From assembly GCF_963921235.1 (NCBI RefSeq), contig NC_086097.1, positions 17,422,001 to 17,486,000 of the forward strand: a stretch of 64,000 nucleotides of DNA, given 5' to 3'. Position numbers and translations under genes: made by a program. Shown piece after piece: positions 2,660-59,710 of this stretch. Below the pieces are notes generated by a model. That model had not been told where the DNA came from. It did no database searches and saw nothing but the letters and a program-made list of their open reading frames with translations. Origin of the DNA: Mobula hypostoma. Its lineage: Eukaryota. Position 1 is the stretch's first letter. Each line of letters opens with the position of its first letter.

Positions 2660-3266
2660 CAAATCAGAGGATTGAGTTCAAGGGCTGCGAGATAGTAGCT
2701 TGCTGCTCGATAAAACCCTGCTTAGACCGCACTTGAAATATTTGTTCAGTTCTGGTCAACCTTTTAGGAAGTATATAGAAGCTTTAGAGAGGGTGCAGAG
2801 AGATTTATCAGGTTGCTACCTGGTCTAGAAAGCATGTCTTATGAGGAAAGGCTGAACAAGCTATGTGTTTTTCTCATTTTAGGGAAAGAGGGTAGGATGT
2901 GGCTTGATAGAGGTGTATAAGTGATAAGAGGCATAGATTGTGGGAAAACCAGAGACTTTATTTTCCCCAGGGCAGAAACAGCTTATATGAGGGAGCATAA
3001 TTTTAAGGTGATTGGAGGAAAGTTTGGGGGAGATGTCAGAGGTAAGTTTACACAGAAAATGGTGGGTGCGTGGAAGGCAGTGCCGGGGTGGTGGTAAAGG
3101 CAGATACATTAGGGACATTTAAATGACTCTCAGATAGGCACATGGATGACAGAAAAATGAAGAGCTATATGGGACTGAAGGATTAGATTGATCTTAGAGT
3201 AGGTTATAAATCAGCACTATATTGTGGATTGAAGGGCCAGTACTGTGCTGTAATGTGCTATGTTCT
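2660..3266 (+). mobile_element. Old CR1 3' end
   Basis: Degenerate ORF2 C-terminus and 3' UTR. Similar short pieces at 1638-1990(-), 9455-9790(+), 16850-17143(+), 36990-37680(-) and 53811-54070(-). Confidence 0.75.
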
Positions 3267-6200
3267 AAGTTGCTGTCAGTTCATCCACTGAAATATATGA
3301 GAGAGTGTTCTTATACACAACATCCATAAAGCAAAGATGCACTAATAACCTGCTCCTAATATACAACAGCACATCTCTTTCCAAACAGTAATGGATCATG
3401 GTAAGCACTCGGAAAATATTGACCACTTTGCACATGTCAATGAAGGCAGGCATCTGTGATAAAATTTACCAGCACTTTCCACGGGTGCTTCAAAATGGGG
3501 TGCTGCACCACAGATCCAAGTTCACCCCTGACTTCTGCAGCTGTCTCTGTAAGCTTGCTCATTCTCATGCAAACCATGCAGATGTCCTCAGGGTGCTCCA
3601 ATTTGCTCCAACTTTTTCAAAATGTGCAGGTTGGTAGGTTAATTGGCCACTGTCAATTGTCCCTAGTGTGTGAGTGGTGGAATCCGGAGGAGGTAAATGG
3701 ATGTGGGTAGAATAAAATAGGATTTGGGTGGGATGAGTGTAAATGCTCACAGTCAGAGTGAACACAATGGGCTGTATGGCCTGTTTCCATGCTGTATGAC
3801 TCTAGAAAGAACAACTTTGTTCTTTGAGTGTTTGAAAATGAAGATCTCAAACATAGCACAACACTAGTGGTTTACCAGGCAGCAGGGCGACCTACCTTCC
3901 TTACATGCTACTGAGACTTGGACTACCTGCAGCAGGCATCACAAATCACTTGAAAGTCCCATCTCTGAAAAATTCTCCAACTCTACTAGTAGGGTAAGGG
4001 AGATGATATCAACATTCTTTCCAAGGCTGAGATCCCCAGTTTTGTGGGCATTAGTTCAATGGTCAGGTCATCTCATCTGCCTGGCTGATACCTTTACATT
4101 TAATAGAAACTTTACTCTGATCTCTTCATGATAGACAAAGGAAATGACTTGGGGATATTCACCAAGCTTCACTGATAAAATGTAAAAACCTGAGCCGTTC
4201 ATGAGAATCTCAAGCCCATGCATGACCCTTAAAAATGGCATTGAGGGTATAAATTTAATTTGTTGGAAGTATGAGGAGACCCACTATAAATGACAAAAGG
4301 GCAACATAGTTAGTGAAACGCTTTATAGCATGCCAGTGTAAGACTGGGATTCGATTCACTGCTCTCTGTAAAGAGTTTCTACAATCTTCCCATGACCATG
4401 TGGGTTTCCTCTGGGTACTCTTGTTTTCTCCCACTTCCAAAGACATACCGGCTAATGTTAGTGAGTTATGGGCATGCTCTTTCTCTCCCTTGATGCTGTC
4501 AGAGGATAGTGTTGGAGCAAGGTTTAATCAACACGGTTTATGGATTGGACTCTAATTCATGTATGATGTGTTACTAGTTTTTCTGGTCACTTTTTTTTTT
4601 GTTGCTATCTTTGGGTGATTTTGAATCAGGGCAGCCTGCAGACAACAAACACTGAGCTGAACTGAAATATACCTTTTGATTTTGTGTTTTATATTCTGCA
4701 TTTTTCACTTGATTTTGTTTTGTTGCTGTTTGCATGATTTGTTTTTTTTTGCTTGTGGGGGAGTCGATGTTTTTCTTTGAATGGGTTCCATGGTTCTTCT
4801 TTGTTTCATGGCTGTATGTGGGGAAGACAAATCTCAGAGCTGGATACCACATACATACTTTGATAATAAAAGTACTTTGAATTCTTCGAATATCACCACA
4901 ATATCTGTAATCTACCTATTCCTGTTAGACGCAACACCTTTATTGTTTCTTGGTGAAACTGTACAGGTTCATAGAGAACCCACACCTGGACTATTTGTCT
5001 ATGTAGCACATGCTTTTTGTAAGGATCACACTTGCTTCTCGTCACATGCCAGACTTTAGACTTCAGACATCACACTTTAGCCAGCACATAAGTCTCATGG
5101 AACCCAAAAGCACTGGTAAAAATCCCAGAACACCATGTAACAAAAATGGAATTTGACTTATTCATTCAATTTAAATTAGTGCCTCTGATAATAATAAGCA
5201 GCATTACTGGGCATAACACTCCTATTGTTATAAAATTGCATATCCCGCCAATCACTGTGAGTAACACCATGTGAGATTGAGATTGAATTGTTTCATTTGG
5301 CAACTAGGCAGAGATTATTTGCTCTCCAGTTTTGATGAAGTGAACAAAGTAGTGGATCGTTCCATGGCCTTTTGGTATATTTTGTTCAAAGGACCGCTCC
5401 ATTTTACAGACCCAAAAATATTCTACTACAATTTTCTTTATTTTTCTTGTACAGATATCTGGTAGATTTGGCTTTTCTTCTGGCAAATTTATCAGATCAC
5501 ATCACAGGTGCTTTAAACTTCAACATTGAAGACATTTCTTTAAGGAATTCTTCCGTAATGTACATTCTTTCTCTAAATTAATGCATCTTCTGTGCTTTTC
5601 ATTTCCAAAAGCTTACAGCAAACAAGAAGTATTGATGTGTTCTTTCTTCATGTTGTTTAAAGTTTTAAACCTTCTGAAGTAGATTCACTGCTGAAGCTGG
5701 GAAAATTCCAGTCTTTAGCAAAGTTAGCCATTGAACAGCAAACCATTCCAAAAAAAAGACTTGATGTCTATGTTTCTCAGCTGGAATCTGTCCAGATACC
5801 CATTAGCCAACCTAGAAACAAATAATAAACTTACCCATGAGATTTCAAAAGCTGACAGAGTTACTGCTCAGGCTCGGCATATAGGCTTGATGACATGCAA
5901 ATTAAAGGGTTCTACCAGTCTACTGGTCAAAATGGAATGAGGCAAACTGAATATGCGGCGTAAATCAGAATTACATCCATTCCCAAATATCACTGTAAAT
6001 CTGAGTGGAAGTAGCAGCTGAAAAAAGATGCATTTCTACCCAATCTGGTGCACCTCCGTAAATGATGGCTAACGATGCCAAAAACTGTCCTAAAGTAATT
6101 TCATCGCAATTATGCTCAACTTTAAGTACACTTAGGTAGATCAATTGCCTACAGATCAGGAAACAGTCGAGTTAAAAGAATATCATTCAACTTTATCTGA

Positions 6201-11100: not shown

Positions 11101-12722
11101 ATTTAATGTAAATCCCAGAAACTTTGATGAGTACCACCAAGTAATAAATCATGAGCTTCCACATGAAACACTAGTTGGGAGGTTTTGACCGATACTTCCT
11201 TCTATAGTCTAATGGAAAATGAGAAATCCCTTCTAATATCAGGGGACTGCAAACCACATCTTCCATCTCATTGGTGAAGAGTATTCACCACATCCTAGCA
11301 AATTACTGCGGAACGTGCCATGCATTTGAAACTACCCTGTACAATATTATTGTGGAAATGCTTGCACAGGACTGAGTTACTTTCTGAGTTCAGAATTGAA
11401 TCCTTCCACATCAGAAAACATTCTAGCATGGAATCCTGGGAGGACGACCAGCGATGAATAATCTTGCTGCAATGCACTGCATTTACAATTTCGATAATAA
11501 TGGTTACAAACACTGGCCATGTGTCTCCCTGGAATACGTAAAGAAAATCTGCAAAAGTTCATCACCGATATAAACAGTTTTCGTAGCCCTGGAGCAGAAA
11601 GTCACTGGCTGGTAGTTGAGAGCAGATCACCTGTCTGCCCATTTGGTTGGTATTAGCATATGTCCCAGGAGACACGGAAAAGAGAAATTAAAATAATTGT
11701 AAACAACAATAGCAAAGAGCATTTCTAGATATCAGGCAAAATAACTGCAATTCTGAGGTCTGACAAAGAAGAATATTGTGCGGCATGATCTCAAACTTAT
11801 GAGATATCTCAGATCAAAATCTGTTATTTTAATATATATAGAACCAAATCATCAGCAATCCAATGAACCCAATTAGTGGGGCACCATGGTAGTGTAATGG
11901 TTAGTGCAATACTATTACAGCTCAGGGCATCAGTGTTCCAAGTTCAGATCTGGCATTGTCTGTAAGAGTTTGTATGTTCTCCCTGTGACCACGTGGGTTT
12001 CCTCTGGGTGCTCTGGTTTCCTCTCACAGTCCTAAGATGTACCGGTTAGTAGGTTAATTGATCAATGTAAGTTGTCCTGTGATTAGCCCAGGGTTATACA
12101 GTGGCATGCAAAAGTTTGGGCACCCCTGGCCAAAATTTCTGTTACTGCTAAGCGAGTAAAAGATGAACTGATTTCCAAAAGGCATAAAGTTAAAGATGAC
12201 ACATTTCTTTAATATTTTAAGCAAGATTACTTTTTTTATTTCCATCTTTTACAGTTTCAAAATAACAAAAAAGGAAAAGGGCTTAAAGCAAAAGTTTGGG
12301 CACCCTGCATGGCAGTACTTAATAACACCCCCTTTGGCAAGTATCACAGCTTGTAAATGCTTTTTGTAGCCAGCTAAGAGTCTTCCAATTCTTGTTTGGG
12401 GGATTTTCGCCCAATTGTCCTTGCAAAAGGCTTCTAGTTCTGTGAGATTCTTGGGCCGCCTTGCATGCACAGCTCTTTTGAGGTCTATCCACAGATTCTC
12501 GATGATGTTTATGTTGGGGGACTGTGAGGACCTTCAGCTTGCGCCTCTTGAGGTAGTCTATTGTGGATTTTGAGGTGTGCTTAGAATCATTATCCTGTTG
12601 TAGAAGCCATCCTCTTTTCATCTTCAAACAACAGGAATTCTGCAGATGCTGGAAATTCAAGCAACACACATCAAAGTTGCTGGTGAACGCAGCAGGCCAA
12701 GCAGCATCTATAGGAAGAGGCG

Positions 12723-12760
12723 CAGTCGACGTTTCAGGCCGAGACCCTTCGTCAGAACTA
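12723..12760 (-). ncRNA. Minimal hammerhead ribozyme motif
   Basis: Inverted copy of 14617-14654; stem I closes with a U-G wobble. Confidence 0.78.
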
Positions 12761-13057
12761 ACTGAAGGAAGAGTGAGTAAGGGATTTGAAAGCTGGAGGG
12801 GGAGGGGGAGATGCAAAATGATAGGAGAAGACAGGAGGGGGAGGGATGGAGCCGAGAGCTGGACAGGTGATAGGCAGAAGGGGATACGAGAGGATCATGG
12901 GACAGGAGGTCCGGGAAGAAAGACGGGGGGGGGGGGGGTGACCCAGAGGATGGGCAAGAGGTATATTCAGAGGGACAGAGGGAGAAAAAGGAGAGTGAGA
13001 GAAAGAATGTGTGCATAAAAAAGAGTAACAGATGGGGTACGAGGGGGAGGTGGGGCC

Positions 13058-13810
13058 TTAGCGGAAGTTAGAGAAGTCGATGTTCATGCCATCAGGTTGG
13101 AGGCTACCCATACGGAATATAAGGTGTTGTTCCTCCAACCTGAGTGTGGCTTCATCTTTACAGTAGAGGAGGCCGTGGATAGACATGTCAGAATGGGAAT
13201 GGGATGTGGAATTAAAATGTGTGGCCACTGGGAGATCCTGCTTTCTCTGGCGGACAGAGCGTAGATGTTCAGCAAAGCGGTCTCCCAGTCTGCGTCGGGT
13301 CTCACCAATATATAAAAGGCCACATCGGGAGCACCGGACGCAGTATATCACCCCAGTCGACTCACAGGTGAAGTGATGCCTCACCTGGAAGGACTGTTTG
13401 GGGCCCTGAATGGTGGTAAGGGAGGAAGTGTAAGGGCATGTGTAGCACTTGTTCTGCTTACACGGATAAGTGCCAGGAGGGAGATCAGTGGGGAGGGATG
13501 GGGGGGACGAATGGACAAGGGAGTTGTGTAGGGAGCGATCCCTGCGGAATGCAGAGAGAGAGGGGGAGGGAAAGATGTGCTTAGTGGTGGGATCCCGTTG
13601 GAGGTGGCGGAAGTTACGGAGAATAATATGTTGGACCCGGAGGCTGGTGGGGTGGTAGGTGAGGACCAGGGGAACCCTATTCATAGTGGGGTGGTGGGAG
13701 GATGGAGTGAGAGCAGATGTACGTGAAATGGGGGAGATGCGTTTAAGAGCAGAGTTGATAGTGGAGGAAGGGAAGCCCCTTTCTTTAAAAAATGAAGACA
13801 TCTCCCTCAT
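13058..13810 (-). CDS. Penelope ORF C-terminal part: linker, Cys motif and GIY-YIG endonuclease (fragment)
   Basis: CKQNKCYTC linker motif; VIYCVRCSRCGLLYIGET...RFAEH...LEEQHLI...GMN. Confidence 0.88.
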   Translation of the reverse strand: MREMSSFFKERGFPSSTINSALKRISPISRTSALTPSSHHPTMNRVPLVLTYHPTSLRVQHIILRNFRHLQRDPTTKHIFPSPSLSAFRRDRSLHNSLVHSSPPSLPTDLPPGTYPCKQNKCYTCPYTSSLTTIQGPKQSFQVRHHFTCESTGVIYCVRCSRCGLLYIGETRRRLGDRFAEHLRSVRQRKQDLPVATHFNSTSHSHSDMSIHGLLYCKDEATLRLEEQHLIFRMGSLQPDGMNIDFSNFR

Positions 13811-14616
13811 CCTAGAATGAAAAGCCTCATCCTGAGAGCAGATGCGGCGGAGACGGAGGAATTGCGAGAAGGGGATGGCGTTTTTGCAAGAGACAGGGTG
13901 AGAAGAGGAATAGTCCAGATAGCTGTGAGAGTCAGTAGGCTTATAGTAGACATCAGTGGATAAGCTGTCTCCAGAGACAGAGACAGAAAGATCTAGAAAG
14001 GGGAGGGAGGTGTCGGAAATGGACCAGGTAAACTTGAGGGCATGGTGAAAGTTGGAGGCAAAGTTAATAAAGTCAACGAGTTCTGCATGCGTGCAGGAAG
14101 CAGCGCCAATGCAGTCGTCGATGTAGCGAAGGAAAAATTCTATTCTGGTATCTGTCCCCCATTTTTCCTTCGCTACATCGACGACTGCATTGGCGCTGCT
14201 TCCTGCACGCCTCCTCTACTGTAAAGATGAAGCCACACTCAGGTTGGAGGAACAACACCTTATATTCCGTATGGGTAGCCTCCAACCTGATGGCATGAAC
14301 ATCGACTTCTCTAACTTCCGCTAAGGCCCCACCTCCCCCTCGTACCCCATCTGTTACTCTTTTTTATGCACACATTCTTTCTCTCACTCTCCTTTTTCTC
14401 CCTCTGTCCCTCTGAATATACCTCTTGCCCATCCTCTGGGTCACCCCCCCCCGTCTTTCTTCCCGGACCTCCTGTCCCATGATCCTCTCGTATCCCCTTC
14501 TGCCTATCACCTGTCCAGCTCTCGGCTCCATCCCTCCCCTTCCTGTCTTCTCCTATCATTTTGCATCTCCCCCTCCCCCTCCAGCTTTCAAATCCCTTAC
14601 TCACTCTTCCTTCAGT

Positions 14617-14654
14617 TAGTCCTGACGAAGGGTCTCGGCCTGAAACGTCGACTG
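14617..14654 (+). ncRNA. Minimal type I hammerhead ribozyme motif
   Basis: UAGUC-CUGACGA-AGG(GUCUCGG)CCU-GAAA-C-GUC-GACUG: stem I, core, stem II, palindromic ACGU stem III. Confidence 0.82.
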
Positions 14655-16214
14655 CGCCTCTTCCTATAGATGCTGCTTGGCCTGCTGCGTTCACCAGCAA
14701 CTTTGATGTGTGTTGCCTCTTTTCATCTTCAGCTTTTTTACAGACGGTGTGATGTTTGCTTCCAGAATTTGCTGATATTTAAATAAATTCATTCTTCCCT
14801 CTACCAGAAAATGTTCCCCATGCCACTGGCTGCAACACCAGCTCAAAGCGTGATCGATCCACCCCCATGCTTAACAGTTGGAGAGGTGTTCTTTTCATGA
14901 AATTCCGCATCCTTTTTTCTCCAAACATACCTTTGTTCATTGCGGCCAAAATTCAGTGTCAGAAGTTTGCAAAGGAACATCTAGACAAGCCTGATGCATT
15001 TTGGAAACAAGTCCTATGGAATGATGAAGTTAAAATAGAACTTTTTGGCTGCGATGAGCAAAGGTATGTTTGGAGAAAAAAGGGTGCAGAAATATTAAAG
15101 AAATGTGTCATCTTTAACTTTATGCCTTTTGGAAATTGGTTCACCTTTTACTCGCTTAGCTATTCACAGTAACAGAAATTTTGACCAGGGGTGCCCAAAC
15201 TTTTGCATGCCACTGTATAGGTGCGTTGCTGGGCAATGTGGCTCATTGGGCTGAAACGGACTGTTCAGCACTGTATTTCTAAATAAATAAACAAATAAAT
15301 ATAAAGATTAAATATTGAAATGCTGTATTATTTAAAGTACAAAATAAATAATACAGAATTTATAATTATTCATTTACAACTAACAGTTCAATAAAACAAC
15401 CCGCTGTTTGATGACAGCTGCGTGGATGGATAGAAGTGAGCTGAATTTTCAGAGTCAGGTGTAAGTAAGGCCAGTGAACATTCAACAATCACAGTGAACA
15501 TTTACCAATCACTGTTTGTTGAACTTGTACAGTTTGGAGATAATTTTCAACTCAAGTACAAACCCTGGACAGTTTACAATGATTTTTATACTGAAAAGGT
15601 TTCAGCTGAATTCTAAGAATAAAGTTGTTTAAATATAGGCCAATTTGACATGAAAATTGCACTGGGATCAGGTTTCAAATAGACTGCATATAAAAATGGA
15701 CAAATTGTGACTCTTTGCCTCACCGCCTGATTTATTGGTTCATTCAGAGATCCTATCTTAACAAAAACTGTTAATACTGAGCCAGAATGTTTTACACCAG
15801 ACAGATGTCGTGGACTTAGGTGGAAGTTGGCACCAATTTGCCTCATGAGCAACAGAATTACAAAACAAATAATCAGAGATTATCTTTTTTTAATATATAC
15901 TTGAGTCAAGAATTCATATTAAAATGTTGTGGTTGGATCAAGAGGGCTGCATAATTGAAGTGGAGGGGAAGTGGTTTGAGACATTGGAACTGCACAGTTG
16001 GATCAGATCTCTATTTCTCTGAAGTCTGTTTACATCCATGATTTTTCGAGCTGCCTGCTTATCTCTGGCATGCTCAAGTTCCCTACTTCAAAGAAATTGT
16101 TACTAATTTTTAGTAAGGGTTTATATGTCTCTAATATTTAAAGCTCATTTTCTCCCTTCTTAGTTGGAGAACCATTAACAAAACCAACCAACCTGATCTA
16201 CTATATAATAGGAG

Positions 16215-16338
16215 AAAATCCACAGATTCTGGAAATCCAAACAACACACACAAAATGCTGGAGGAACTCAGCAGGCCAGGCAGCACCTATGGAAAAGAGT
16301 ACAGTGACGTTTCAGGCCAAGACCCTTCAGCATGACTG
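16215..16338 (-). mobile_element. Short Penelope 3'-end remnant
   Basis: aacacacacaaaatgctggaggaactcagcagg...gacgtttcaggccaagacccttc; similar remnants near 46080-46175 and 51430-51550. Confidence 0.7.
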
Positions 16339-17143
16339 CTGAGTTTACTCAGTAAATCTGTCTCTCCTAGGGAAACAGCCAACCAATTTAAAAAAACAGT
16401 TCTTCAATGACCTCCCCCTCTTGCCAAACCTCGGCTCCACCTGAATTAAGTCAATTTGCCTCTAATCAGCACTTCCTTTTTTAATCTGTTTTAAATGAAA
16501 CCCAGCAGAGCTGGGTTTACTCCTTCATCGGTATGTTCTCTGATGTGGAATATTGATGGTTAAAAAACACAGTGTCACATCCGAACTGAATTAAATGTGC
16601 TTTTACTATTGCTGTTTCTGAACAACTTCACCCTTGTATTTATATTGATGACAACCAGACTTCCATTTACACCCATTTTCGCAGACCTCCAGCCGATCAA
16701 ACTGTCTGCCTACTATCGTTATGGATGAGTCATAATTTATGCAAAGCCATCATTTTAACCTGTGTGATTAACTTCTTGCCCTTTCAGCTGATTTCATCAA
16801 TGTTCTGAGGAACGTATTCAGACTGAATCAGAACTTGAGAATCTCCAAATTATGAGGAGCTCTGTTAAAGTTTTCCCCTTGGAACAGGAATCTATAACCA
16901 AAGGGCACAGGTTTAAGATAACAGAATTTAAAGGGGAACTTGAGGAAGGTGTTTTTCACCCAGAGATTTGTAGACACTGGGACGATACAGCCTGATGGAA
17001 ACAGATGCTCTCATAACCTTTGAGAGGTATTTAGATGGACACCTGAAATGTTTTGGTTCAAAAATTGAAATGAGGTTGGATAGGTCCTTCATGACTGGCA
17101 TGCACAAATTGGGTTGAAGAACCAGTTTTCAAATTGTTGGGCC

Positions 17144-17423
17144 TGTGGCGACCCACTTTCTGGCACCCACGAACCGGTTCACGAAACAGCGCGCGCAGGC
17201 AGAGGGCCGGCACCAAAAAGGGCGCCAGGCCATCTTCACCAGCAGGGGGAAAATCCCGCGTGCGGAAAGGGTCTGGGAATATGCATTCCCCACAGTAGTC
17301 TCGCCCAGGGAGGGCGGGAACGGGAAGGCTTTAAAGCGGGCCGTGAAGTTCGAATAAATCTCTTTCATCGCAACTCTAACTCACCGACTCCTTTTCTAGC
17401 GCTGTGTGTAGCACATCGCTACA
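17144..17423 (+). repeat. 5' LTR of Gypsy element
   Basis: TGTGGCGACC...CGCTACA, direct repeat of 21182-21465; contains AATAAA. Confidence 0.95.
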
Positions 17424-17425
17424 AT

Positions 17426-17439
17426 TGGTGACCCCGACG
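17426..17439 (+). promoter_or_regulatory. Primer binding site, tRNA-Trp
   Basis: TGGTGACCCCGACG, 2 nt after the LTR, complementary to the vertebrate tRNA-Trp 3' end (same as the avian leukosis virus PBS). Confidence 0.9.
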
Positions 17440-17463
17440 GCCCAAACGATATTTGGACCAGAG

Positions 17464-18165
17464 ATGACCGACGCTGCATCTGTTCACGCAGTTTCGTTAA
17501 AACTGTCAAGCTTCTGGACGCTGCGACCCCATTTATGGTTCGAACAAGCAGAAGCACAATTCCACATTCGGCAGATAACCTCGGAGTCCACTCGCTACCA
17601 CTACGTGCTGAGCTCCCTCGACCAGGAGACTGCTGCACAAGTTGAGGAGTTTATACAGTCGCCCCCGGAGGACGGCAAATACACAGCATTCAAAGCCCTG
17701 CTCATAAGGACTTTCGGACTCTCACGGCGCGAACGAGCACGCCGCTTAATGCACCTGGATGGTTTGGGAGACAGGCCGCCGTCAGCATTAATGAACGAGA
17801 TGCTGGCCCTGGCTGAAGGACACAAACCCTGCCTCATGTTTGAGCAGGCGTTCCTAGAGCAACTGCCCGAGGACATATGCCTGCTGCTGTCCGACGCAGA
17901 TTTCAGCAACCCCCGGGAGGTGGCGGCCCGAGCAGATGTGCTGTGGAATGCCAGGAAAGAGAGAGGGGCATCCGTCGCACAGATCACCAAGCCGCGTGCC
18001 CAACGACAGACCAGACCAGGCCCGGCAGCAGAGCCTACAAAACCCGGCGACGGGAGTGAGGAGCCCAACGAACAATGGTGTTTCTACCACCAGCGGTGGG
18101 GCACGGAGGCCCGCTGCAGACCGCCCTGCAAATTCCCGGGAAACGCCAGGGCCAGCCGCCGCTGA
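17464..18165 (+). CDS. gag: Gypsy Gag
   Basis: MTDAASVHAVSLKLSSFW..PHLWFEQAEAQF, LGDRPPSALM, C-terminal WCFYHQRWG..CRPPC Cys/His motif. Confidence 0.88.
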   Translation: MTDAASVHAVSLKLSSFWTLRPHLWFEQAEAQFHIRQITSESTRYHYVLSSLDQETAAQVEEFIQSPPEDGKYTAFKALLIRTFGLSRRERARRLMHLDGLGDRPPSALMNEMLALAEGHKPCLMFEQAFLEQLPEDICLLLSDADFSNPREVAARADVLWNARKERGASVAQITKPRAQRQTRPGPAAEPTKPGDGSEEPNEQWCFYHQRWGTEARCRPPCKFPGNARASRR

Positions 18166-18183
18166 TGGCTACGGCGGCTGGCC
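18138..18183 (+). promoter_or_regulatory. Programmed -1 ribosomal frameshift signal
   Basis: G_GGA_AAC slippery heptamer in the gag frame, 5-nt spacer, perfect 12-bp GC-rich stem (18150-18161/18172-18183); the -1 frame is pol. Confidence 0.85.
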
Positions 18184-21181
18184 ATCAGGACAGCCTCCTG
18201 TACGTCTGGGACAAGCAGTCGGGACGCCGTTTTTTGGTCGACACCGGAGCGGAGATCAGCGTCTTACCTCCAACGAGTTACGACAGCCGCAACAGAGAAC
18301 CGGGACCCACCCTGAGGGCCGCTAATGGCAGCACAATACGAACCTACGGCACCCGCACGGTGCGGCTACAGTTCAGCTCCAGCCGGTTCACGTGGGACTT
18401 CACACTGGCCGCCGTGGCCCAACCACTGCTGGGGGCAGATTTTCTATGAGCCCACAGCCTGCTGGTCGACTTGCAAGAGAAGCGATTAGTCCACGCCAAG
18501 ACTTTTCAAACGTTCTCCCTGGGTGAAGCACAGTTGCCAGCCCCACACCTGGACTCCATCACGCTGTCCGACGATGAATTCACCAGGGTCCTGGCGGATT
18601 TCCCATCAGTACTGACACCGCAGTTCACGGCAGCCATGCCCAGACAAGGAGTACAGCACCACATCCCGACCCAGGGACCACCCCTGCACGCCCGTGCTCG
18701 AAGGCTTCCCCCGGACAAGCTCCGACTGGCGAAGGAGGAGTTCAAGAAGATGGAGGAATTAGGGATCATACGACGGTCCGACAGCCCATGGGCCTCCCCC
18801 CTTCACATGGTGCCCAAGGCAACGGGGGGCTGGAGACCATGCGGTGACTACCGCAGACTGAATGAGGCTACAACGCCAGACCGCTACCCTGTGCCGCACA
18901 TTCAAGACTTCGCAGCAAACCTACACGGCGCAAGGATCTTTTCCAAGGTAGACCTCGTCCGGGGATACCATCAAATCCCTGTACATCCGGACGACATCCC
19001 CAAAACAGCACTTATCACCCCGTTCGGACTTTTCGAATTCCTCCGAATGCCATTTGGTCTAAAGAACGCCGCACAGACTTTCCAGCGGCTAATGGAAGCG
19101 GTGGGACGCGACCTGGACTTTGCATTCATCTATTTGGACGACATCCTCATAGCCAGCAGTAGTCGGCAGGAGCATCTGTCCCACCTCCGATCTACTCCCG
19201 CCTGACTGAATTCGGCCTTACAATCAATCCAGCCAAATGCCAGTTCGGACTCGACACCATTGACTTCCTGGGCCACAGGATTACTAAAGACGGGGCAACC
19301 CCGCTGCCCGCCAAGGTAGACGCGGTCCGCCACTTCCCCCGATCCAACACAATCAAAGGCCTGCAGGAATTCGTGGGTATGGTGAATTTCTACCACCGTT
19401 TCCTCCCCTCAGCAGCCCGAACCATGCGCCCCTTGTTCACTCTAATGTCGGGTAAGGGCAAGGACATTACCTGGAACGAAGAGGCCGCAACCGCTTTCGT
19501 TAAGCCTTGGCAAACGCCGCGATGCTAGTGCACCCCAGAACGAACGTTCCTACTGCCCTCACGGTGGACGCATCCAACACAGCAGTCGGTGGAGTGCTGG
19601 AACAACTCATCGAGGGTCGCTGGCAACCCCTGGCGTTCTTCAGCAAACACCTACGACCACCCGAACTCAAATACAGTGCTTTCGACCGGGAGCTATTGGC
19701 ACTATACCTGGCAATCCGGCATTTCAGGTACTTCTTAGAAGGTAGGCCCTTCACTGCGTTCACTAAGGTGTCCGACCCCTGGTCGTCCTGCCAGCAGCAA
19801 CATCTGTCCTACATCTCCGAGTACACGACGGACATCCGGCATGTCTCTGGAAAGAACAATGTCGTGGCAGACGCACTATCCAGACCTACCATACAGGCCC
19901 TGTCCCAGGGGGTGGACTATGCAGCGCTGGCAGAGGCACAGCAGGCAGACGCTGAGATCCCCAGTTACAGGAATGCAGTCTCCGGTTTGCAGCTCCAAGA
20001 CCTCCCGGTAGGCCCAGGTGAGAGGACCCTACTATGTGACGTAGCTACTGGCCAACCCCGCCCCGTCGTCCCAGCAGCCTGGCGCCGGCGGGTGTTCGAA
20101 TCCATTCACAACTTAGCGCACCCCTCCATCAGGACAACCGTCCGGCTGGTCTCCAACAGGTTCGTGTGGCATGGACTTCGTAAACAGGTCAGTAAATGGG
20201 CCAAAACGTGTATGCAGTGCCAAACGGCCAAGGTGCAGCGGCACACCAAGGCTCCACCGCAGCGGTTCGAACCCACCCGCCGGAGGTTCGACCACATCCA
20301 TGTGGATATCGTGGGGCCCCTGCCAGTGTCACGAGGAGCGCGGTACCTCCTAACTATGATAGACCGGTTCACCAGATGGCCAGAGGCAGTCCCGCTCAGC
20401 GACACCACCTCCAAATCCTGCGCCCGAGCACTGATCGCAACCTGGGTAGCACGCTTCGGGGTACCGGCCCACATTACCTCCGACAGGGGCGCCCAGTTCA
20501 CCTCCAGCCTGTGGTCGGCTATGGCCAGACTTTTAGGAACACAGCTACACCACACAACTGCCTACCACCCACAGTCGAACGGACTAGTGGAGCGCTTCCA
20601 CCGTCACCTGAAATCGGCTCTCATGGCCCGGCTGGAGGGGCTTAACTGGGTGGACGAACTTCCCTGGGTCCTCCTCGGAATCCGCACAGCGCCCAAAGAG
20701 GATCTACACACCTCGTCGGCCGAGTTGGTGTACGGCGCGCCCCTGGTCGTCCCAGGAGAGTTCATACCAGCCCCAAGGGGGCAAGAGGAAGAACCCACAG
20801 CAGTCCTGGACAGACTACGGGAGAGGCTCGGTAACCTGGCCCCCATACCCACTTCACAGCACGGACAGAGCCCGACTTGCGTACCCAAAGACCTGCAGAA
20901 CTGTAAGTTTCTTTTTGTACGACGGGGCGGACACCGGGCACCGCTACAGCGGCCCTACGAGGGGCCGTTTAAGGTGATCAGGAACAACGGGTCCACGTTC
21001 GTGCTGGACATTGGGGGGAGAGAGGAGGTTTTCACGGTGGACCGACTCAAACCGGCCCATGTGGACTTGGCGCAACCGGTCCAGGCTCAGGCACTGCGGC
21101 GCAGGGGCAGACCTCCCAAACAGAGGCCGATCCAGACTGGACACTGGGGGAGGTATCGCCGGTTCTGGGGGGGGGGGGTTA
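18138..21181 (+). pseudogene. pol: Gypsy Pol (protease, RT, RNase H, integrase), disrupted
   Basis: LVDTGAEIS protease, YLDD RT, DAS...YSAFDRELLA RNase H, HHCC plus DDE integrase and GPY/F motif. In-frame TGA at 18447, frameshifts near 19190 and 19500, apparent loss of the DHKPL segment near 19760. Confidence 0.92.
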
Positions 21182-21465
21182 TGTGGCGACCCACTTTCTG
21201 GCACCCACGAACCGGCTCACGAAACAGCGCACGCAGGCAGAGGGCCGGCACCAAAAAGGGCGCCAGGCCATCTTCACCAGCGGGGGAAAATCCCGCGCGG
21301 AAAGGGTCTGGGAATATGCATTCCCCACAGTAGTCCCGCCCAGGGAGGGCGGGAACGGGAAGGCTTTAAAGCGGGCCGCGAAGTTTGAATAAATCTCTTT
21401 CATCGCAACTCTAACTCACCGACTCCGTGTGGTTATTCTAGTGCTGTGTGTAGCACATCGCTACA
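21182..21465 (+). repeat. 3' LTR of Gypsy element
   Basis: Direct repeat of the 5' LTR, preceded by the PPT and followed by the GGCC TSD. Confidence 0.95.
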
Positions 21466-40175: not shown

Positions 40176-41173
40176 TACAAGTTCATAAGATTCAAAGAAC
40201 TGATGCATTTACATTTTTCATGTTTACATAACTCACAGAACTACACTGCCATATTTACTAAAGTCACAACCCAGTCTCTTAAATTTAAACAACTTCCCCC
40301 AACAGAAAATTCGCCTATCAGCTTCTTTTTAACTACGCTGTTAAACTGTGGAACTCAGTAGCTAAAACTATAAGGGATGCAGACCCAGTTGATGCCATTA
40401 AAGGCTAGCTCAAAACCTATTTATTTAACCTTGCTTTTAACTAACATTGTTCTGTCTTTTATTTTTTGTTTGTACTTTATGCCATTGTAAAGCATTTTGA
40501 AGTACATTTGTATGAAAAGTGCTCTATAAATAAGTTATTGTTATTATTATTGTTAAAAGAAAAGATATTCTAAAATTGACAGGCAAAGAGGATGGAAATA
40601 AAACCAGGTATTCACTTTCTGAGAATGTAAACTGCTTTCACAGGAGAACACAATAGAAATCGTAACACAATCAAAATGACAATCCTTTCATGTTTTACAA
40701 GAGACAAATGAGCCACTTAGCTTATTTTTATTGTCCATGTTTCAGAGTCTATGATTTGCTGGCAGGATCAGCATTTATTGCCTTTCTCCATTCACACATG
40801 AGCCACTTCTTGAACCACAGCATTCCTTCTAGTGAAGATACTCCTACAGTGCTGTTGGGTAGGAAGTTCCATGATAAGACCTAGGGTTGAAGGAGAAGTA
40901 GTGACATATTTCCAGATCAGAATGTTGAGCAACTCTCCGAGGGGCAGCATGATAGTGTTAGCAGGTAGTGTAAGGCCATTACAGTTCCAGCAACCTGGAT
41001 TCAGTTCTGCCTTTATCTGCAAAGAGTTTGTACATTCTCCCCCATGGTCACTTGGGTTTCCTCTGTGTGCTCCAATTTCCTCCAATGTTCCATAGACATA
41101 TGGGTTAGTAGGTTACATACATCAAAGTTGCTGGTGAACGCAGCAGGCCAGGCAGCATCTCTAGGAAGAGGCG

Positions 41174-41210
41174 CAGTCGACGTTTCAGGCCGAGACCCTT
41201 CGTCAGGACT
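41174..41210 (-). ncRNA. Minimal hammerhead ribozyme motif
   Basis: Reverse-complement copy with a 4-bp stem I. Confidence 0.75.
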
Positions 41211-41214
41211 CAGT

Positions 41215-41252
41215 TAGTCCTGACGAAGGGTCTCGGCCTGAAACGTCGACTG
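41215..41252 (+). ncRNA. Minimal hammerhead ribozyme motif
   Basis: Identical to 14617-14654. Confidence 0.82.
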
Positions 41253-43009
41253 CGCCTCTTCCTAGAGATGCTGCCTGGCCTGCTGCGTTCACCAGCAACT
41301 TTGATGTATGTTGCTTGAATTTCCAGCATCTGCGGAATTCCTGTTGTTTGGGTTAGTAGGTTAATTGGTCACATGAGTGTAATTAGGTGGCATGCTTGCA
41401 TTGGGCCAGAAAGGCATCTCTAAATTAAAGAAAACCAGGAGGGAACCTGCAAATAGTGGTACACTAATGCACTTGTAGTCCTTGTCCTTCTTGCTGGTTG
41501 AGTCTGTGGGTTTGGGAGGTTCTGTCTGAGTAACCTGGATGAGTAACTGCAGTGCATTTTGTAGATGCTTCCTCACACTTTTGTAGATGGTACTGCAACT
41601 ATTTTCTTCCATTGGTAGAGTGATTGAATGTCTATGGTTACTAATAGGAAGCTTTTTCCTGAAAGCTGTCTAGTTCTTTGAGAGGTCTTAGAGCTGCCTT
41701 CATCCAGATAGATAGGGTATACAGTCATATTTCTATCTTATGTCTTATTAAGAGTGGAAAGTCTATGGGGTATCTGAGGGTAAACTACTATCTGTCTCTG
41801 ACCTGCTCTTGCATCCACTGTATTGATGAAGCTAATTCATTTGTGTTTGCCATTAATAGTGATGTTGAAGGAAATACTAACGGTAATGTGGGGTAAAATA
41901 TCATTTTCTGTCCATGTGAAAAAATAATTTTTGATATTGTGGCAACATTCATGCCTGTGGCTCATACCGCTAAGGTTAAGTAAATTCCAACCAGCCCCAG
42001 CAATGGAGATTGGAATCCTTAGAGCTTGCTATCATTACAATGTTTAGATCCAGTGAGTGTGGACTTGTTCATTGTATAGATTGCGGGAGTCCATAACTTC
42101 TGATCTTCAAGTTGTTATATGAAAACCCATAACCATAAGAAAAATGTTGCCTCATTCACAGAAAATAAAATGGCTTGGTCATATATTTGGAAGAATCAGA
42201 ATAGATATGTTGAAAATAGGTGGCAAAGGAAAAATTGAGCAGGGGAACTAAAAATAATGTTTTTTGCTTTTCACTGTTGTGCATAGAATTCCTCACACTT
42301 TAGTTGTTTCTTTTTGCAGGCATCCTGCCTATTCGCTTTAAATAAGTAGGTGTCTATTTAAATTTGTTAATTATTGTCTAATACCTGCCTTGAATCCCAG
42401 CATGGATCACCTCAAGTAGTTTGTTCGCCAGATTACTGGATATTTCTTGTAGCATTCTGGGTGCTTCTGGTACTGGTTGGTGCTGCTAGCTTCAGGGAAG
42501 CAGAACTAGTACTAATCACAACAGTGACAGGAAGTTATCCTGAAAGGAGCAGCATGCGCCTCACCATGGTAGTACTGTAATTCAAATGATGCTGTATCTC
42601 AGCATTCCCACTGATCTGCAGGAGAGCATAATATTCTTACGCTTCTCGTTCATCTTTGATGCCTCTTCTGGATAAATGATTTTTAATAAATGAAAGAGCC
42701 AGCCTGTCTTCACTTTGCTTAATTTAACCTATTTGGTCCAGTCTTCAAGAGAGGCAGTTAGGGGGAAGGGGGCCAGAATAGGAAGACTCAGGGACCTAAT
42801 TGAAGATTGCAGTCTTTCAACAAAGACCAGCAACAAGAATGTAGATGAAGATTTCTTGAACTTCTTCCAGGTGAGGTTTCGGCATTTTGGGCTAGGCTGT
42901 AGGCTTGAGGTGGCGCAACTGTTAGGATGGGAAGTGGGTTAGGTAGATGCAGGACAATTGGCTATTGTATGGCCAAACATAAAGAAGGCAAGCCACAGTA
43001 GTCAGTAAG

Positions 43010-43480
43010 TTAGATGAGGCCACCCTCAGGGTGGAGGAGCAACACCCTATATTCCATCTGGGTACCCTCCAACCTGATGGCATGGATATCGACTGTAGCT
43101 TCCTGTAAATTAATTTCCTTTCCTTTATTCCCAACTGTGACCTTTTTGCTTCTTCTCACCTACGTATTACTTACCCTGGGTCCTCTCCTCCTTCCCTTTG
43201 TCCTATGGTTCACTCTTCTCTCCTCTGAGATTCTTACTTCTCCAGCCCTTGACCTTTCCCATCCATGTAGCTTCGCCTATCACCTTCCAGCTAGCCTCTC
43301 CTCCCACCCCCCCCACACCTTTTTATTCTGGAATCTTCCTCTTTCCTTCTCAGTACTAAAGAAGGGTCTTGGACCAAAACATTCATTATCCATTCATTCC
43401 ATAAATGCTGCCTGACTTGCTGGTTCCTCCAGCATTTTGTGTGGGTTGGTTTGGATTTTCAGCATCTGCAGACTTTCTCT
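43010..43480 (+). mobile_element. Old Penelope 3' fragment
   Basis: Endonuclease C-terminus (EATLRVEEQHPIFHLGTLQPDGM) and degenerate 3' UTR. Confidence 0.8.
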
Positions 43481-55935: not shown

Positions 55936-56481
55936 GCAGCACACATCAAAGTTGCTGGTGAACGCAGCAGGCCAGGCAGCATCTCTAGGAAGAGGTATAG
56001 TCGACGTTTCGGGCTGAGACCCTTCGTCAGGACTAACTGAAAGAAGAGCTAGTAAGAGATTTGAAAGTGGGAGGGGGAGGGGGAGATCCAAAATGATGGG
56101 AGAAGACAGGAGGGGGAGGGATGGAGCCAAGAACTGGACAGTTGATCGGCAAAAGGGATATGAGAGGATCATGGGACAACCCTTTTCCTTCTCTCTGGCC
56201 CTCCTGTCCCATGATCCTCTCATATCCCTTTTGCCAATCAACTGTCCAGCTCTTGGCTCCATCCCTCCCCCTCCTGTCTTCTATCATTTGGATCTCCCCC
56301 TCCCCCTCCCACTTTCAAATCTCTTACTAGCTCTTCCTTCAGTTAGCCTTGACGAAGGGTCTCGGTCCGAAACGTCGACTGTACCTCTTCCTAGAAATGC
56401 TGCCTGGCCTGCTGTGTTCACCAGCAACTTTGATGTGTGTTGCTTGAATTTCCAGCATCTGCAGAATTCCTTGTGTTTGTG
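55936..56481. mobile_element. Fold-back Penelope 3'-UTR insertion
   Basis: About 240-bp diverged inverted arms (55936-56178/56205-56443); 12-bp TSD TTGAAAAAGATA (55924-55935/56482-56493). Confidence 0.9.
55998..56035 (-). ncRNA. Minimal hammerhead ribozyme motif (variant stem II)
   Basis: UAGUC-CUGACGA-AGGGUCUCAGCCC-GAAA-CGUC-GACUA. The partner copy at 56344-56381 has a mutated core (UUGACGA). Confidence 0.65.
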
Positions 56482-57052: not shown

Positions 57053-59710
57053 TCCCAACCCTCCCCTCTCCACTAACACCAGCCTCCCTCCCCCTCCATC
57101 CTCAGATCCCGGCTCTCATCTGTGCCGGGTCTTTACCATCCCCTCCGACCTTCAACTCTTTGAGGCAGAGCGCTCTGTCCTCAGTACAGGCCTTACCTTT
57201 GTCCCCCTTCGCCCACACCTCAGTGAGTTCCGCGTGCGTCATGACACTGAACTCTTCTTCCGCCGGCTCCATCTTCAAGCCTACTTCTTCGGCAAGGACT
57301 CTCCTACCCCCACCGATGACCCCTTCTCCCATCTTCAACCCTCCTCCTCTTCATGGACACCCTGCTCTGGCCTTCTGCCTGCTCTGGATCCCTTTATTGC
57401 TAACTGTCAACGGGACATCAACCATCTCAACTTCACCACACCTTGTTCCAATTCCAACTTCACTCCTTCCGAATGCTCTGCTCTCCAATCCCTCCGCACC
57501 AATCCTAACCTTACTATAAAACCTGCTGATAAGGGAGGGCACTGTTGTTGTCTGGCTTACTGACCTCTACCTTGCCGAGGCACAGTGACAACTCGCTGAT
57601 ACCTCCTCTTATTTACCCCTCGATCATGACCCCACTAAGGAGCATCAGGCCATTGTCTCCCACACCATCACCAACCTTATTAGCTCTGGGGATCTCCCAT
57701 GCACTGCCACCAACCTCATAGTTCCCACACCCCGCACTTCCCATTTCTACCTCCTACCCAAGATCCACAAACCTGCCTGTTCAGGTAGACCCATTGTTTC
57801 AGCTTGCTCCTGCCCTACCAAACTCATTTCTGCATAACTTGACACTGTTTTATCCCCCCTTGTTCAACCTCTTTCCACCTATGTTTGTGACACTTCTCAT
57901 GCTCTGAATTTTTTCAATAATTTTAATTTCCCTGGCTCCCACCGCCTTACTTTCACCATGGATGTCCAGTCCCTATATACCTCCATCCCCCACCAGGAAG
58001 GTCTCAAAGCTCTCAGCTTTTTTTTGGATTCCAGATCTAACCAGTTCCCCTCTACCACCATTCTCCTCCGTCTAGCAGAATTAGTCCTTACTCTTAGTAA
58101 TTTCTCCTTTGGCACCTCCCACTTCCTCCAAACTAAAGGTGTAGCCATGGGCACCCATATGGGTCCCAGCTATGCGTGCCTTTTTGTTGGCTTTGTGGAA
58201 CAGTCCATGTTCCAAGCGTATACTGGTATCTATCCCCCACTTTTCCTTCGCTACATCGACGACTGCATTGGCGCTGCTTTCTGCACGCATACTGAGCTTG
58301 TTAACTTCATTAACTTTGCCTCCAACTTTCACCCTGCCCTCAAATTTACCTGGTCCATTTCCAACACCTCCCTCCCCTTTCTTGATCTTTCTGTCTCTAT
58401 CTCTGGAGACAGCTTATCTACTGATGTCTACTATAAGCCTTCGGACTCTCACAGCTACCTGGACTATTCCTCTTCCCACCTTGTCTCTTGCAAAAATGCC
58501 ATGCCCTTCTCACAATTCCTACATCTCCACTGCATCTGCTCTCAGGATGAGGCCTTTCATTCCAGGACGAAGGAGATGTCTTCCTTTTTTAAAGAAAGGG
58601 GCTACCCTTCCTCCACCATCAACTCTGCTCTCAAGCGCATCTCTCTCATTTCACGCAGATCTGCTCTCACCCCATCCCCCCCCCGCCACCCCACTAGGGA
58701 TAGGGTACCCCTTGTCCCCACCAGCCTCCGGGTCCAACATATAATTCTCCGTAACTTCCACCACCTCCAACAGGATCCCACCACCAAGCACATCTTTCCC
58801 TTCACCCCCTTTCTGCTTTCTACAGGGATCTCTCCCTATGCGACTCCCTTGTCCATTCATCTCCCCATCCCTTCCCACCGATCTCCCTCCCGGCACTTAT
58901 CCTTGTAAGCGGAACATCTGCTACACATGCCCTTACACTTCCTCCCTTACCACCATTCAGGGCCCCAGACAGTCCCTCCAGTTGAGGCGACACTTCACCT
59001 GTGAGTTGGCTGGGGTGATATACTGTGTCCGGTACGGCCTTCTATATATTGGCAAGACCATTTCGCTGAACACGTACGCTCTGTCCGCCAGAGAAAGCAG
59101 GATCTCCCAGTGGCCACACATTTTAATTTCATGTCCCATTCCCATTCTGATATGTCAGTCCCTGGCCTCCTCTACTGTCAAGATGAAGGCACACTCAGGT
59201 TGGAGGAACAACACCTTATATTCCATCTGGGTAGCCTCCAACCCGATGGCATGAACATTGACTTCTCTAGCTTCTGTTAATGGCCCTCCTCCCGTTCTTA
59301 CCCCATACCTTATTTATTTATTTATTTGTTTGTTTATTTTTTCCTTTTCTCTCTCTGTCTCTCTCACAATAACTCCTTGCTCGTTCTCCATCTTCCTCTG
59401 ACACTCCCCTCCCCCTTTCTTTCTCTCTAGTCCTCCTGTCCCATGATCCTCTCCCTTCTCCAGCCTTGTATCCCTTTTGCCAATCACCTGTCCAGCTCTT
59501 GGCTCTATCCCTCCCCCTCCTGTCTTCTCCTATCATTTCGGATCTCCCCATCCCCCTCCCACTTTCAAATCTCTTACTATCTCTTCTTTCAGTTAGTCCT
59601 GACGTCAACTGTGATTCTTCTTATGGATGCTGTCTGGCCTGCTGCGTTCCACCAGCATTTTGTGTGTGTTGCTTGAATTTCCAGCATCTGCAGATTTCCT
59701 CATGTTTGCG
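57053..59710 (+). mobile_element. Near-full-length decayed Penelope-like element
   Basis: IKPADKGG, MDVQSLYTSIP, GVAMGT.MGPSYA and RYIDD RT motifs; broken GIY-YIG; same 3' UTR; 11-bp TSD AAACTAAAATA (57042-57052/59711-59721). Confidence 0.92.

Follow-up and report, generated by a model that had tools for sequence, protein, structure and literature searches.

A 233-bp head-to-head hairpin in Mobula hypostoma as a probable 5'-truncated insertion of a Penelope-like retrotransposon

We analyzed a 64,000-nt stretch of the genome of Mobula hypostoma (referred to below as the window, meaning the whole stretch at its full length) and found that a 233-bp hairpin within it is best explained, with a probability of roughly 0.88, as a single, recent insertion in which extreme 5' truncation left only the 3' end of a Penelope-like retrotransposon (PLE) of the endonuclease-bearing kind. 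Three sets of observations are documented here: the anatomy of the insertion, its family identity, and a genome-wide continuum of junctions among fold-back copies. Under this explanation integration yields such a hairpin afresh at each event, as its end product, and the hairpin does not copy itself as a unit.

Anatomy and family identity of the insertion

A previous reading of this locus from its sequence alone had described an insertion flanked by target-site duplications and consisting of a perfect 96-bp inverted repeat with a 5-nt loop and a 37-nt tail, and our repeat analysis confirmed this layout. The features of the hairpin are listed below, followed by two further fold-back insertions of the same family that were found in the window.

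41101..41115, no strand: left copy of the 15-bp target-site duplication TGGGTTAGTAGGTTA, an exact direct repeat with 41349-41363
41116..41210, minus strand: left arm, the tail-less and antisense-oriented PLE 3' region, from the inverted repeat and alignment to the longer copy
41179..41206, minus strand: hammerhead core (CUGACGA...GAAAC GUC), 0 mismatches
41211..41215, plus strand: 5-nt loop, CAGTT
41216..41311, plus strand: right arm, the sense-oriented PLE 3' region, from the inverted repeat and alignment
41220..41247, plus strand: hammerhead core, 0 mismatches
41312..41348, plus strand: 37-nt unpaired tail, on one arm only, representing the very 3' end of the element
41349..41363, no strand: right copy of the 15-bp target-site duplication TGGGTTAGTAGGTTA, an exact direct repeat with 41101-41115
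12627..14715, no strand: longer fold-back insertion of the same family, with the tail on the left and, at 12611 and 14716, the 16-bp duplication CCTCTTTTCATCTTCA
55936..56481, no strand: older fold-back insertion of the same family, with the tail on the right and, at 55924 and 56482, the 12-bp duplication TTGAAAAAGATA

The insert spans 41116-41348 (233 bp), and the inverted-repeat analysis pairs 41115-41210 with 41216-41311, each 96 nt long and 100% complementary to the other. Because the first base of the arm is also the last base of the duplication, these borders are known to +/-1. The left arm reaches from an outer end at ...GATGTATG inward to a point just upstream of its hammerhead core, and with the longer copy in the window taken as reference it aligns to positions 1382-1477. 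The loop CAGTT extends the family sequence of the tail-bearing right arm, which on its inner side therefore reaches ~5-6 nt further than the left arm. Within 41116-41348 no direct repeat of element sequence, that is, no tandem pseudo-LTR, was found, as would be expected of so short a stub.

The arms of the hairpin are 96-97% identical to the copy at 12627..14715, and this identity makes the hairpin a member of the PLEs since the longer copy bears an ORF (13058-14215, minus strand) that runs from a reverse transcriptase (RT) with a YIDD motif to a GIY-YIG domain. The YIDD motif is followed by a match to PF01541 (GIY-YIG) with an E-value of 2.8e-4 and a score of 21.6 bits, just below the Pfam cut-off of 22.6. 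At E<=1e-10 the ORF has 85 protein relatives, all longer (roughly 680-1,360 aa), most of which are listed with PF00078 (RT) and some with PF01541, and two relatives of ~800 aa that were rescanned were found to have RVT_1 at residues 288-479 and GIY-YIG at 705-785. The left arm of the longer copy, which carries this ORF, is unbroken for ~1.5 kb; the fold-back pairs 14089-14138 with 14161-14210, and the right arm has no equivalent of 13174-14088. In the older copy the arms are 93.9% complementary and the fold-back lies ~170 nt upstream of the hammerhead. All three core-bearing insertions in the window are thus built as a head-to-head pair with a duplication and one tail, with a fold-back point that is different in each.

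This plan resembles that of endonuclease-bearing (EN+) PLEs of the Penelope/Poseidon type. As described in passages of PMC8557442, PLE insertions are strongly 5' truncated and often have an adjacent inverted truncated copy, they carry a tail of 30-40 bp at one end only, and their terminal repeats contain hammerheads. We find the counterpart of each of these traits here: 5' truncation with a head-to-head inverted copy, a 37-nt tail at one end, a terminal hammerhead (at the level of the motif) and a target duplication, along with an ORF in the longer copies in which RT precedes GIY-YIG. The hairpin differs in being an extreme case, with arms of ~96 and ~133 nt that hold no coding sequence, and in lacking the partial tandem duplication (direct pseudo-LTR), which the same passages describe as frequent in PLEs but not obligatory. 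Of the two options in the sequence-only reading, one was a Penelope-like element truncated to an extreme degree, and the anatomy of the insertion, the matching copies in the window and the published PLE signature all support it.

Hammerhead motifs and a shared variant

The 28-nt hammerhead core CTGACGAAGGGTCTCGGCCTGAAACGTC is present without mismatches on both strands of the hairpin, and the window as a whole has 6 matches to it at <=3 mismatches, as compared with 0 in 100 shuffles. With hammerhead numbering assigned following the description in PMC4209133, both strands were found to have, at motif level, the conserved core C3-A9 and G12-A14, the A15.1-U16.1 context and a cleavable NUH triplet. 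Position 11.1, however, is a U in the hairpin's subfamily (...GGGUCUCGGCCU GAAA) and not the conserved C, while the older window copy does have a C there (56003-56030, ...CAGCCC GAAA). An Rfam scan of the whole window at the gathering score gave no hammerhead model match and no matches at all. Repeating the scan over 41050-41420 at E<=10 gave no hammerhead family either but only sub-threshold matches that were microRNA-like (mir-3926, mir-2432, mir-136) or belonged to UnaL2 and EBER2, all of which we attribute to the perfect stem of the hairpin. The proposal of an intact minimal hammerhead on each strand therefore stands as far as the core motif is concerned, which is found on both, but not with respect to position 11.1 or to recognition by an Rfam model. 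These matches also carry a warning for annotation, as PLE stubs that score like microRNA precursors could pass for MITEs or hairpin RNA genes.

The minimal type I hammerheads of metazoan PLEs (PMC4209133) share with the hairpin the core CUGANGA...GAAA and the GUC cleavage triplet, the lack of a real helix III, a palindromic 15.1-16.1 region (ACGU) and a helix I of 4-5 bp. They differ in the conserved G10.1-C11.1 pair that closes helix II, which in the hairpin would be G-U. These minimal hammerheads are dimer-dependent, with a tandem pair being necessary for weak cleavage in vitro (PMC4209133), whereas each transcript of the hairpin would hold one sense motif. The 233-nt transcript is predicted to fold into a 96-bp stem with an energy of -218.4 kcal/mol (z = -30.5), and in such a fold no ribozyme would be kept free, as the antisense copy would base-pair with the whole motif.

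Both arms of the hairpin carry the variant GTATG, from which it had been argued that they derive from one template molecule. We do find GTATG in both arms and GTGTG in the window's two other head-to-head copies, but the variant is not private to the hairpin. It is carried by 7 of 21 examined loci and, at the place 41308, by roughly one fifth of the contig depth that the family has in the public run X1. Given that GTATG is a subfamily polymorphism, it lends no support to a single-template origin, and we do not retain that argument.

Fold-back junctions across the genome and competing explanations

The exact 28-nt hammerhead core occurs 42,891 times in the genome. Facing pairs of cores were found genome-wide at 2,087, 1,034, 521 and 260 loci for gaps of 0-30, 31-60, 61-90 and 91-120 nt, respectively, giving at least 3,902 loci with a gap of <=120 nt; all of these are exact-pattern counts and hence lower bounds, with 50 loci listed per class. 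The four counts form a smooth series that halves with every 30 nt of gap, or ~15 nt per arm. Among the first 50 tight junctions listed, we counted 36 different junction sequences by eye. We fetched 21 loci (L001-L021), and every one of them has exactly one tail-bearing arm, with inserts of 179-261 bp and, in 20 of the 21, an exact flanking repeat of 10-17 nt (7 nt in L013). A MITE-like element was rejected, as such a range of junctions, insert lengths and duplications, with the single tail lying on either side, leaves no fixed structure. We found no rule among the 21 loci for which arm is longer, the one with the tail or the one without (6 vs 13, 2 equal), and the comparison is weak either way because the BLAST end points overlap at the loop.

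The hairpin's exact 19-nt junction recurs at 6 loci genome-wide, each with a different target duplication. Taken alone, this would look like a small mobile family, and the second option of the sequence-only reading was indeed a non-autonomous, retrozyme- or MITE-like hairpin that is transcribed and re-inserted as a unit by the PLE reverse transcriptase. Non-autonomous derivatives of PLEs are known from other organisms, according to passages of PMC8557442 and of the preprint 10.64898/2026.07.22.740005. GTATG is also mildly enriched among the sharers of the junction (4 of 6, against 3 of the 15 other loci), which might be a sign that some of them share an ancestor, with L001 and L002 alike and L003 and L005 alike. 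However, the six sharers fall into at least three subfamilies, as told by the markers GC or TA at ...CTG[CG/TA]CCTC, CTATAG or CTAGAG, and GTATG or GTGTG, and these markers also occur at loci with other junctions. Of the sharers, 3 have their tail on the right side of the loop and 3 on the left, which is impossible from a single master, and two other junctions recur at 66 and 224 loci, far above the hairpin's own. The many kinds of tight junction and the smooth halving of the gap classes speak against a unit as well, and a transcript of it would bury in its stem both the ribozyme and the partner arm of the 3' recognition region.

Animal non-LTR retrozymes, as described in passages of 10.64898/2026.07.22.740005, are head-to-tail tandem units with a hammerhead that are thought to cycle via circular RNA. 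The hairpin is similar to them in being a short non-coding sequence from a PLE terminal repeat with hammerhead motifs, but its arms form a palindrome joined head to head, it has a PLE tail and a target duplication, its motifs lie on opposite strands, and its junction varies among copies, so we rejected this assignment. It had been anticipated that a unique junction, together with fold-back points scattered among the copies, would mark the hairpin as a one-off truncation. The junction is not unique, as six loci with distinct duplications share it, but the points of fold-back spread over a smooth continuum. The scattered fold-backs, mixed subfamilies, tails on either side and commoner junctions together point to a by-product of integration and not to a self-propagating family of hairpins, which we regard as very improbable.

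Contigs from the public runs X1, X5, X13 and X14 (Logan) were mapped to the locus, with the RNA label of X13 and X14 being a guess. Word depth over 41120-41362 is in the millions, and mapping there is swamped by the repeat family. An 80-nt X1 contig (41054-41133) runs without a single difference from the left flank into the left arm, while among the contigs listed for the four runs none crosses the loop or the right junction. The X13 and X14 contigs over the arms have 4-10 differences and so come from other copies. Contigs of the related organism B on the flanks, which differ at 4 of 233 nt and 7 of 293 nt, end at 41082 and 41358; an empty-site joint (41115 to 41364) was not among the joints listed, nor did the search of public runs list an RNA run containing the stretch. 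As for gene context, the sequence-only reading had placed the hairpin in a putative intron 1 of LTBP2; a six-frame scan of the 64-kb window for the calcium-binding EGF signature D-x-[DN]-E-C gave 0 matches and so no confirmation of this placement, and windows of >=6 cysteines per 45 residues showed nothing gene-like. A GC-rich block at 17-21 kb, considered as a first exon, was rejected as it is an LTR retrotransposon.

Perfect palindromes are known to trip genome assemblies, and with the loop spanned by none of the Logan contigs listed, one might suspect an artefact such as a chimeric fold-back read. Neither a target duplication nor an asymmetric tail would be expected from such a read, however, and the flank is joined to the left arm by the X1 contig (although X1 is possibly the assembled sample). 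The same plan is moreover repeated at thousands of loci with aged and mismatched arms, and we therefore give an artefact next to no credence. The perfect identity of the arms would also fit a recent local inverted duplication, in which a simple 5'-truncated insertion was later made palindromic by the host, for instance through replication fold-back or through the repair of a hairpin-capped break. This we consider highly improbable, as the duplication encloses the whole palindrome and not one arm, the single tail and flanking duplication are all but constant among the fetched loci (21 and 20 of 21), and inverted copies are a described trait of PLEs. The finding of at least 3,902 loci with a gap of <=120 nt for one repeat family instead indicates the element's own mechanism.

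Proposed route of integration

We return, then, to the hairpin as a truncated PLE insertion. In the route that we propose, the GIY-YIG endonuclease would cut both target strands ~15 bp apart, giving rise to the 15-bp duplication. The element RNA would be reverse-transcribed from the target DNA primers at two alternative internal start sites ~37 nt apart, which would leave the tail on one arm and not on the other. After only ~100-130 nt, synthesis would revert onto complementary DNA, by copy-back or template switch, and the two sides would be linked in a nearly symmetric head-to-head junction. From the tail-less end to the hammerhead motif the distance is ~70-95 nt, and a fold-back just upstream of the motif would bring one motif per strand beside the loop; their placement there is probably incidental.

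Twin priming is known from 5'-inverted L1 insertions, in which the second target strand primes and part of the insert is inverted, this part being a different and more 5' segment of the RNA. The proposed route is similar in that the second target strand would act as a primer and part of the insert is inverted, but both arms of the hairpin are copies of one 3' segment and so form a true palindrome.

Passages of PMC8557442 describe the mechanism of PLE integration as still undefined. Both-strand cleavage and the two start sites are taken from another PLE: as reported in passages of PMC11167929, in vitro work with the PLE protein of Anolis showed cleavage and extension of both strands of the target, and the PLE tail is the interval between two RT start sites. 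These are results for one lizard element in vitro, and we apply them to the present family by analogy. The order of events and the copy-back step are what we infer, as independent priming of two cDNAs would not by itself account for arms that end within a few nucleotides of each other. Near-symmetric junctions and a halving of counts with arm length are absent from the passages of PMC8557442 and PMC11167929, and neither the halving series nor minimal PLE hairpins turned up in our literature search, which is no proof of absence in print.

The locus itself is of little weight, being one abortive insertion among thousands in a family that is very abundant and was recently active, and its back-to-back ribozyme motifs are likely an accident of the position at which synthesis turned back. 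The near-symmetric junctions, the strictly one-sided tail and the halving of counts with arm length may, on the other hand, help research on PLE integration. A more speculative and on balance unlikely idea is that tight palindromic stubs represent a distinct early step of PLE integration, at which the RT snaps back with a roughly constant chance per nucleotide and only the complexes that escape make long copies; at least 3,900 near-perfect hairpin loci would have been seeded in this way. If so, transcribed intragenic hairpins could supply double-stranded RNA to silencing pathways that act against their own family.

Anatomy of the hairpin and its relatives in the window

Sequence reading of 40900-41600 and a repeat finder gave an anatomy in exact agreement with that of the sequence-only reading. 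From the limits of the arms, the target duplication and the tail (extra 3' end sequence on a single arm), the insert is therefore 41116-41348, or 233 bp.

Features of the hairpin and of related Penelope-like element (PLE) copies in the window
41101-41115 and 41349-41363: target duplication TGGGTTAGTAGGTTA, 15-nt exact direct repeat
41115-41210 and 41216-41311: hairpin arms, 96 nt each, 100% complementary (sequence reading and repeat finder)
Between the arms: loop CAGTT, 5 nt (sequence reading and repeat finder)
41312-41348: hairpin tail, 37 nt, unpaired (sequence reading and repeat finder)
41179-41206 (-) and 41220-41247 (+): 28-nt hammerhead core CTGACGAAGGGTCTCGGCCTGAAACGTC
12627-14715: fold-back copy, 16-nt duplication, tail left, left arm unbroken for ~1.5 kb
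55936-56481: fold-back copy, 12-nt duplication, tail right, arms 93.9% complementary
~16223-16337, 43012-43478, 58219-59708: more diverged fragments of the PLE family

Allowing up to 3 mismatches, CTGACGAAGGGTCTCGGCCTGAAACGTC was matched six times in the whole window versus 0 times in 100 shuffles. They fall into three minus/plus pairs (12728/14622, 41179/41220 and 56003/56349). Each pair is one head-to-head insertion, with a separate target duplication, of a shared repeat family. All three core-matching insertions share a plan of duplication, inverted arms and a tail on a single arm, with three distinct fold-back points. In copy 55936-56481 the fold-back point lies ~170 nt upstream of the core, while copy 12627-14715 folds back by pairing 14089-14138 with 14161-14210, after which its right arm omits the equivalent of 13174-14088. 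This last copy is nested in another element, with frames on either side at 12319-12626 and 14732-15172; from the look of the peptide, these frames (e.g. 14783-15172, +) may be a Tc1/mariner-type transposase remnant.

Family identity and the insertion signature

The long arm of copy 12627-14715 contains an ORF of 385 aa (13058-14215, -) with the reverse-transcriptase motif YIDD and, downstream of it, a GIY-YIG match (E = 2.8e-4) whose 21.6 bits fall slightly under the Pfam cut-off of 22.6. A search of longer proteins with this ORF returned 85 relatives at E<=1e-10, mostly of 700-950 aa; PF00078 was given for the majority and PF01541 for some. Two that we rescanned had RVT_1 at ~288-479 and GIY-YIG at ~705-785. 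This order, reverse transcriptase first and GIY-YIG endonuclease at the C terminus, is given in PMC8557442 as the architecture of PLEs that bear an endonuclease; the paper also describes strong 5' truncation of PLE insertions, a 30-40 bp 'tail' often at one end only, and hammerhead motifs typically within the pseudo-LTRs. The hairpin itself has a duplication, a one-sided tail and a head-to-head order, matching one by one the insertion traits described in PMC8557442 and PMC11167929; the inner ends of its arms also nearly coincide. Judged from sequence, it thus shows the signature published for PLE insertions at its smallest size, and the earlier proposal of an extreme truncation product of a PLE was right, given the YIDD and GIY-YIG ORF, the duplication, the inverted arms and the single tail.

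We fetched 21 genomic loci (L001-L021), comprising six that share the loop-spanning junction of the hairpin (L001-L006) and the first 15 listed tight facing-core loci. Exactly one arm bore a tail in 21 of 21. Flanking repeats, exact over 10-17 nt, were present in all except L013 (20/21), where the repeat was only 7 nt. Insert lengths ranged from 179 to 261 bp, and the relation of the longer arm to the tail followed no consistent rule (6 versus 13, with 2 equal). On the numbering of the window's own longer copy, the tail-less arm mostly ended within ~20 nt, at 1473-1495; four outliers stopped short of this (1434, 1435, 1443 and 1456). According to passages of PMC11167929, a purified Anolis PLE protein both cuts and extends the two target strands and begins reverse transcription at two neighbouring internal sites, the tail being the stretch between them; hammerhead mutants insert unaffected in vitro. 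The clustered tail-less ends fit a second, internal start site of this kind.

We infer that, after short synthesis, the polymerase would turn back onto complementary DNA, either that of its own cDNA or that of the second cDNA, each target strand having primed one. In support, the junctions listed for all four gap classes described below are mostly near-palindromic and leave few bases unpaired, several form perfect palindromes around sites that are naturally self-complementary, and the shorter of two unequal arms often reads as a short copy-back and then a jump, e.g. in copy 12627-14715. One palindromic junction, ...GAAAGCTTTC..., occurred 4 times among 50 listed loci (gap of 61-90 nt).

Fold-back junctions across the genome

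The M. hypostoma genome (3.48 Gb, 200 contigs) contained 42,891 exact cores. Facing cores (exact 11-mers) numbered 2,087 at gaps of 0-30 nt, 1,034 at 31-60 nt, 521 at 61-90 nt and 260 at 91-120 nt, halving almost exactly with each additional 30 nt and showing no peak at the gap of 13 that the hairpin has. Such halving would correspond to a chance of turning back that stays constant, nucleotide by nucleotide, over the first ~60 nt upstream of the core. The first 100 listed exact cores included 12 facing pairs with spacings of 36-3,246 nt (counted by eye). Fold-back copies of far greater length occur as well. The length distribution therefore seems to combine two classes, of which the short one would probably represent an abortive phase and not the full range. 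The genome-wide regularity of these PLE stubs is the only mildly new result here; the hairpin locus itself belongs to a known kind of insertion.

A search with the loop-spanning 19-mer, proposed earlier as a check for a mobile hairpin family, found the junction at 6 genomic places with unrelated flanks and a flanking repeat of their own, so that it is not unique, but the fold-back points form a continuum. By eye, the first 50 of the 2,087 tight loci held 36 distinct junction sequences, six of them recurring, and other junctions are far commoner than the hairpin's (224 and 66 loci versus 6). Some junctions are thus strongly favoured: in the one at 224 loci, about a tenth of all tight junctions, one arm starts exactly at the C of CTGACGA and the other two bases earlier. 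With 42,891 exact cores, a few junctions would be expected to coincide.

Nor do the six sharers look like one lineage from their sequences. L004 and L006 carry older 'TA' subfamily markers common to L012, L013, L015 and L018, while L001/L002 and L003/L005 carry two further marker sets. The tail lies to the right of the oriented loop in L001, L003 and L005 and to the left in L002, L004 and L006; a single master hairpin cannot yield both. Some fold-back copy may conceivably have been re-used once as a template, since GTATG occurs in 4 of the 6 sharers versus 3 of the 15 other loci and L001/L002 and L003/L005 are similar pairs, but the continuum of gaps, the commoner junctions and the mixed markers and tail sides speak against hairpins replicating as a lineage, and the idea of a mobile hairpin family is therefore unsupported.

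GTATG, the variant of GTGTG found in both hairpin arms, had been taken as the sign of one template molecule. It is present in 7 of the 21 fetched loci, and the corresponding A at 41308 makes up about a fifth of family contig depth in X1 (a public sequencing run) versus ~2% in X5 (a run of a related organism, coded B), so GTATG is a subfamily polymorphism. Identity of the arms marks a young insertion and a shared source sequence, but not necessarily a single RNA molecule. In L005 (G000:C21:95298103-95301121) three positions distinguish the two arms, and two of these are sites that separate subfamilies elsewhere. Either mutation after insertion or the use of two different template RNAs could account for this.

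Ribozyme motif and genomic surroundings

Read against passages of PMC4209133, each strand contains the GUC triplet and core nucleotides of a hammerhead, a helix I of 4-5 bp and a palindromic ACGU through which two copies could form a common helix III as a dimer. That paper classes the hammerheads of metazoan PLEs as minimal type I motifs that lack a real helix III and presumably work as dimers; in vitro, cleavage was low and confined to tandem constructs. In the dominant subfamily (the 42,891 exact cores) the base before GAAA (11.1; 41238 and 41188) is U, and the conserved G10.1-C11.1 pair closing helix II becomes G-U; the older copy at 56003-56030 has C. In older copies, this C precedes G (CpG). 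Rfam hammerhead models had no match in the window or around the hairpin. The predicted fold of the unit transcript is a full 96-bp stem (-218.4 kcal/mol, z = -30.5) in which the lone sense motif is paired to its own antisense, so self-cleavage from this locus would be unlikely.

Contig depth indicates that the hairpin was inserted inside another interspersed repeat: outside the insert, across 41012-41416, depth is hundreds to thousands versus ~10 in the unique flanks, reaching ~2,000-6,000 in X1 immediately left of the insert. The left flank of L006 resembles this host repeat. Contigs of X5 match the flanks 40850-41082 (4 differences in 233 nt) and 41358-41650 (7 in 293 nt) at ~98% identity and break inside the host repeat. 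The window search gave support neither for nor against the putative LTBP2 intron context. Elsewhere, a GC-rich block (17058-21400, GC 0.56-0.58) contains long plus-strand frames of up to 609 aa (19504-21333), with protease-like, integrase-like and reverse-transcriptase (YLDD) sequence. One peptide string is shared by the minus-strand frames 17058-17330 and 21087-21365, suggesting two LTRs, and the block at 17-21 kb has the appearance of a reasonably complete LTR retrotransposon.
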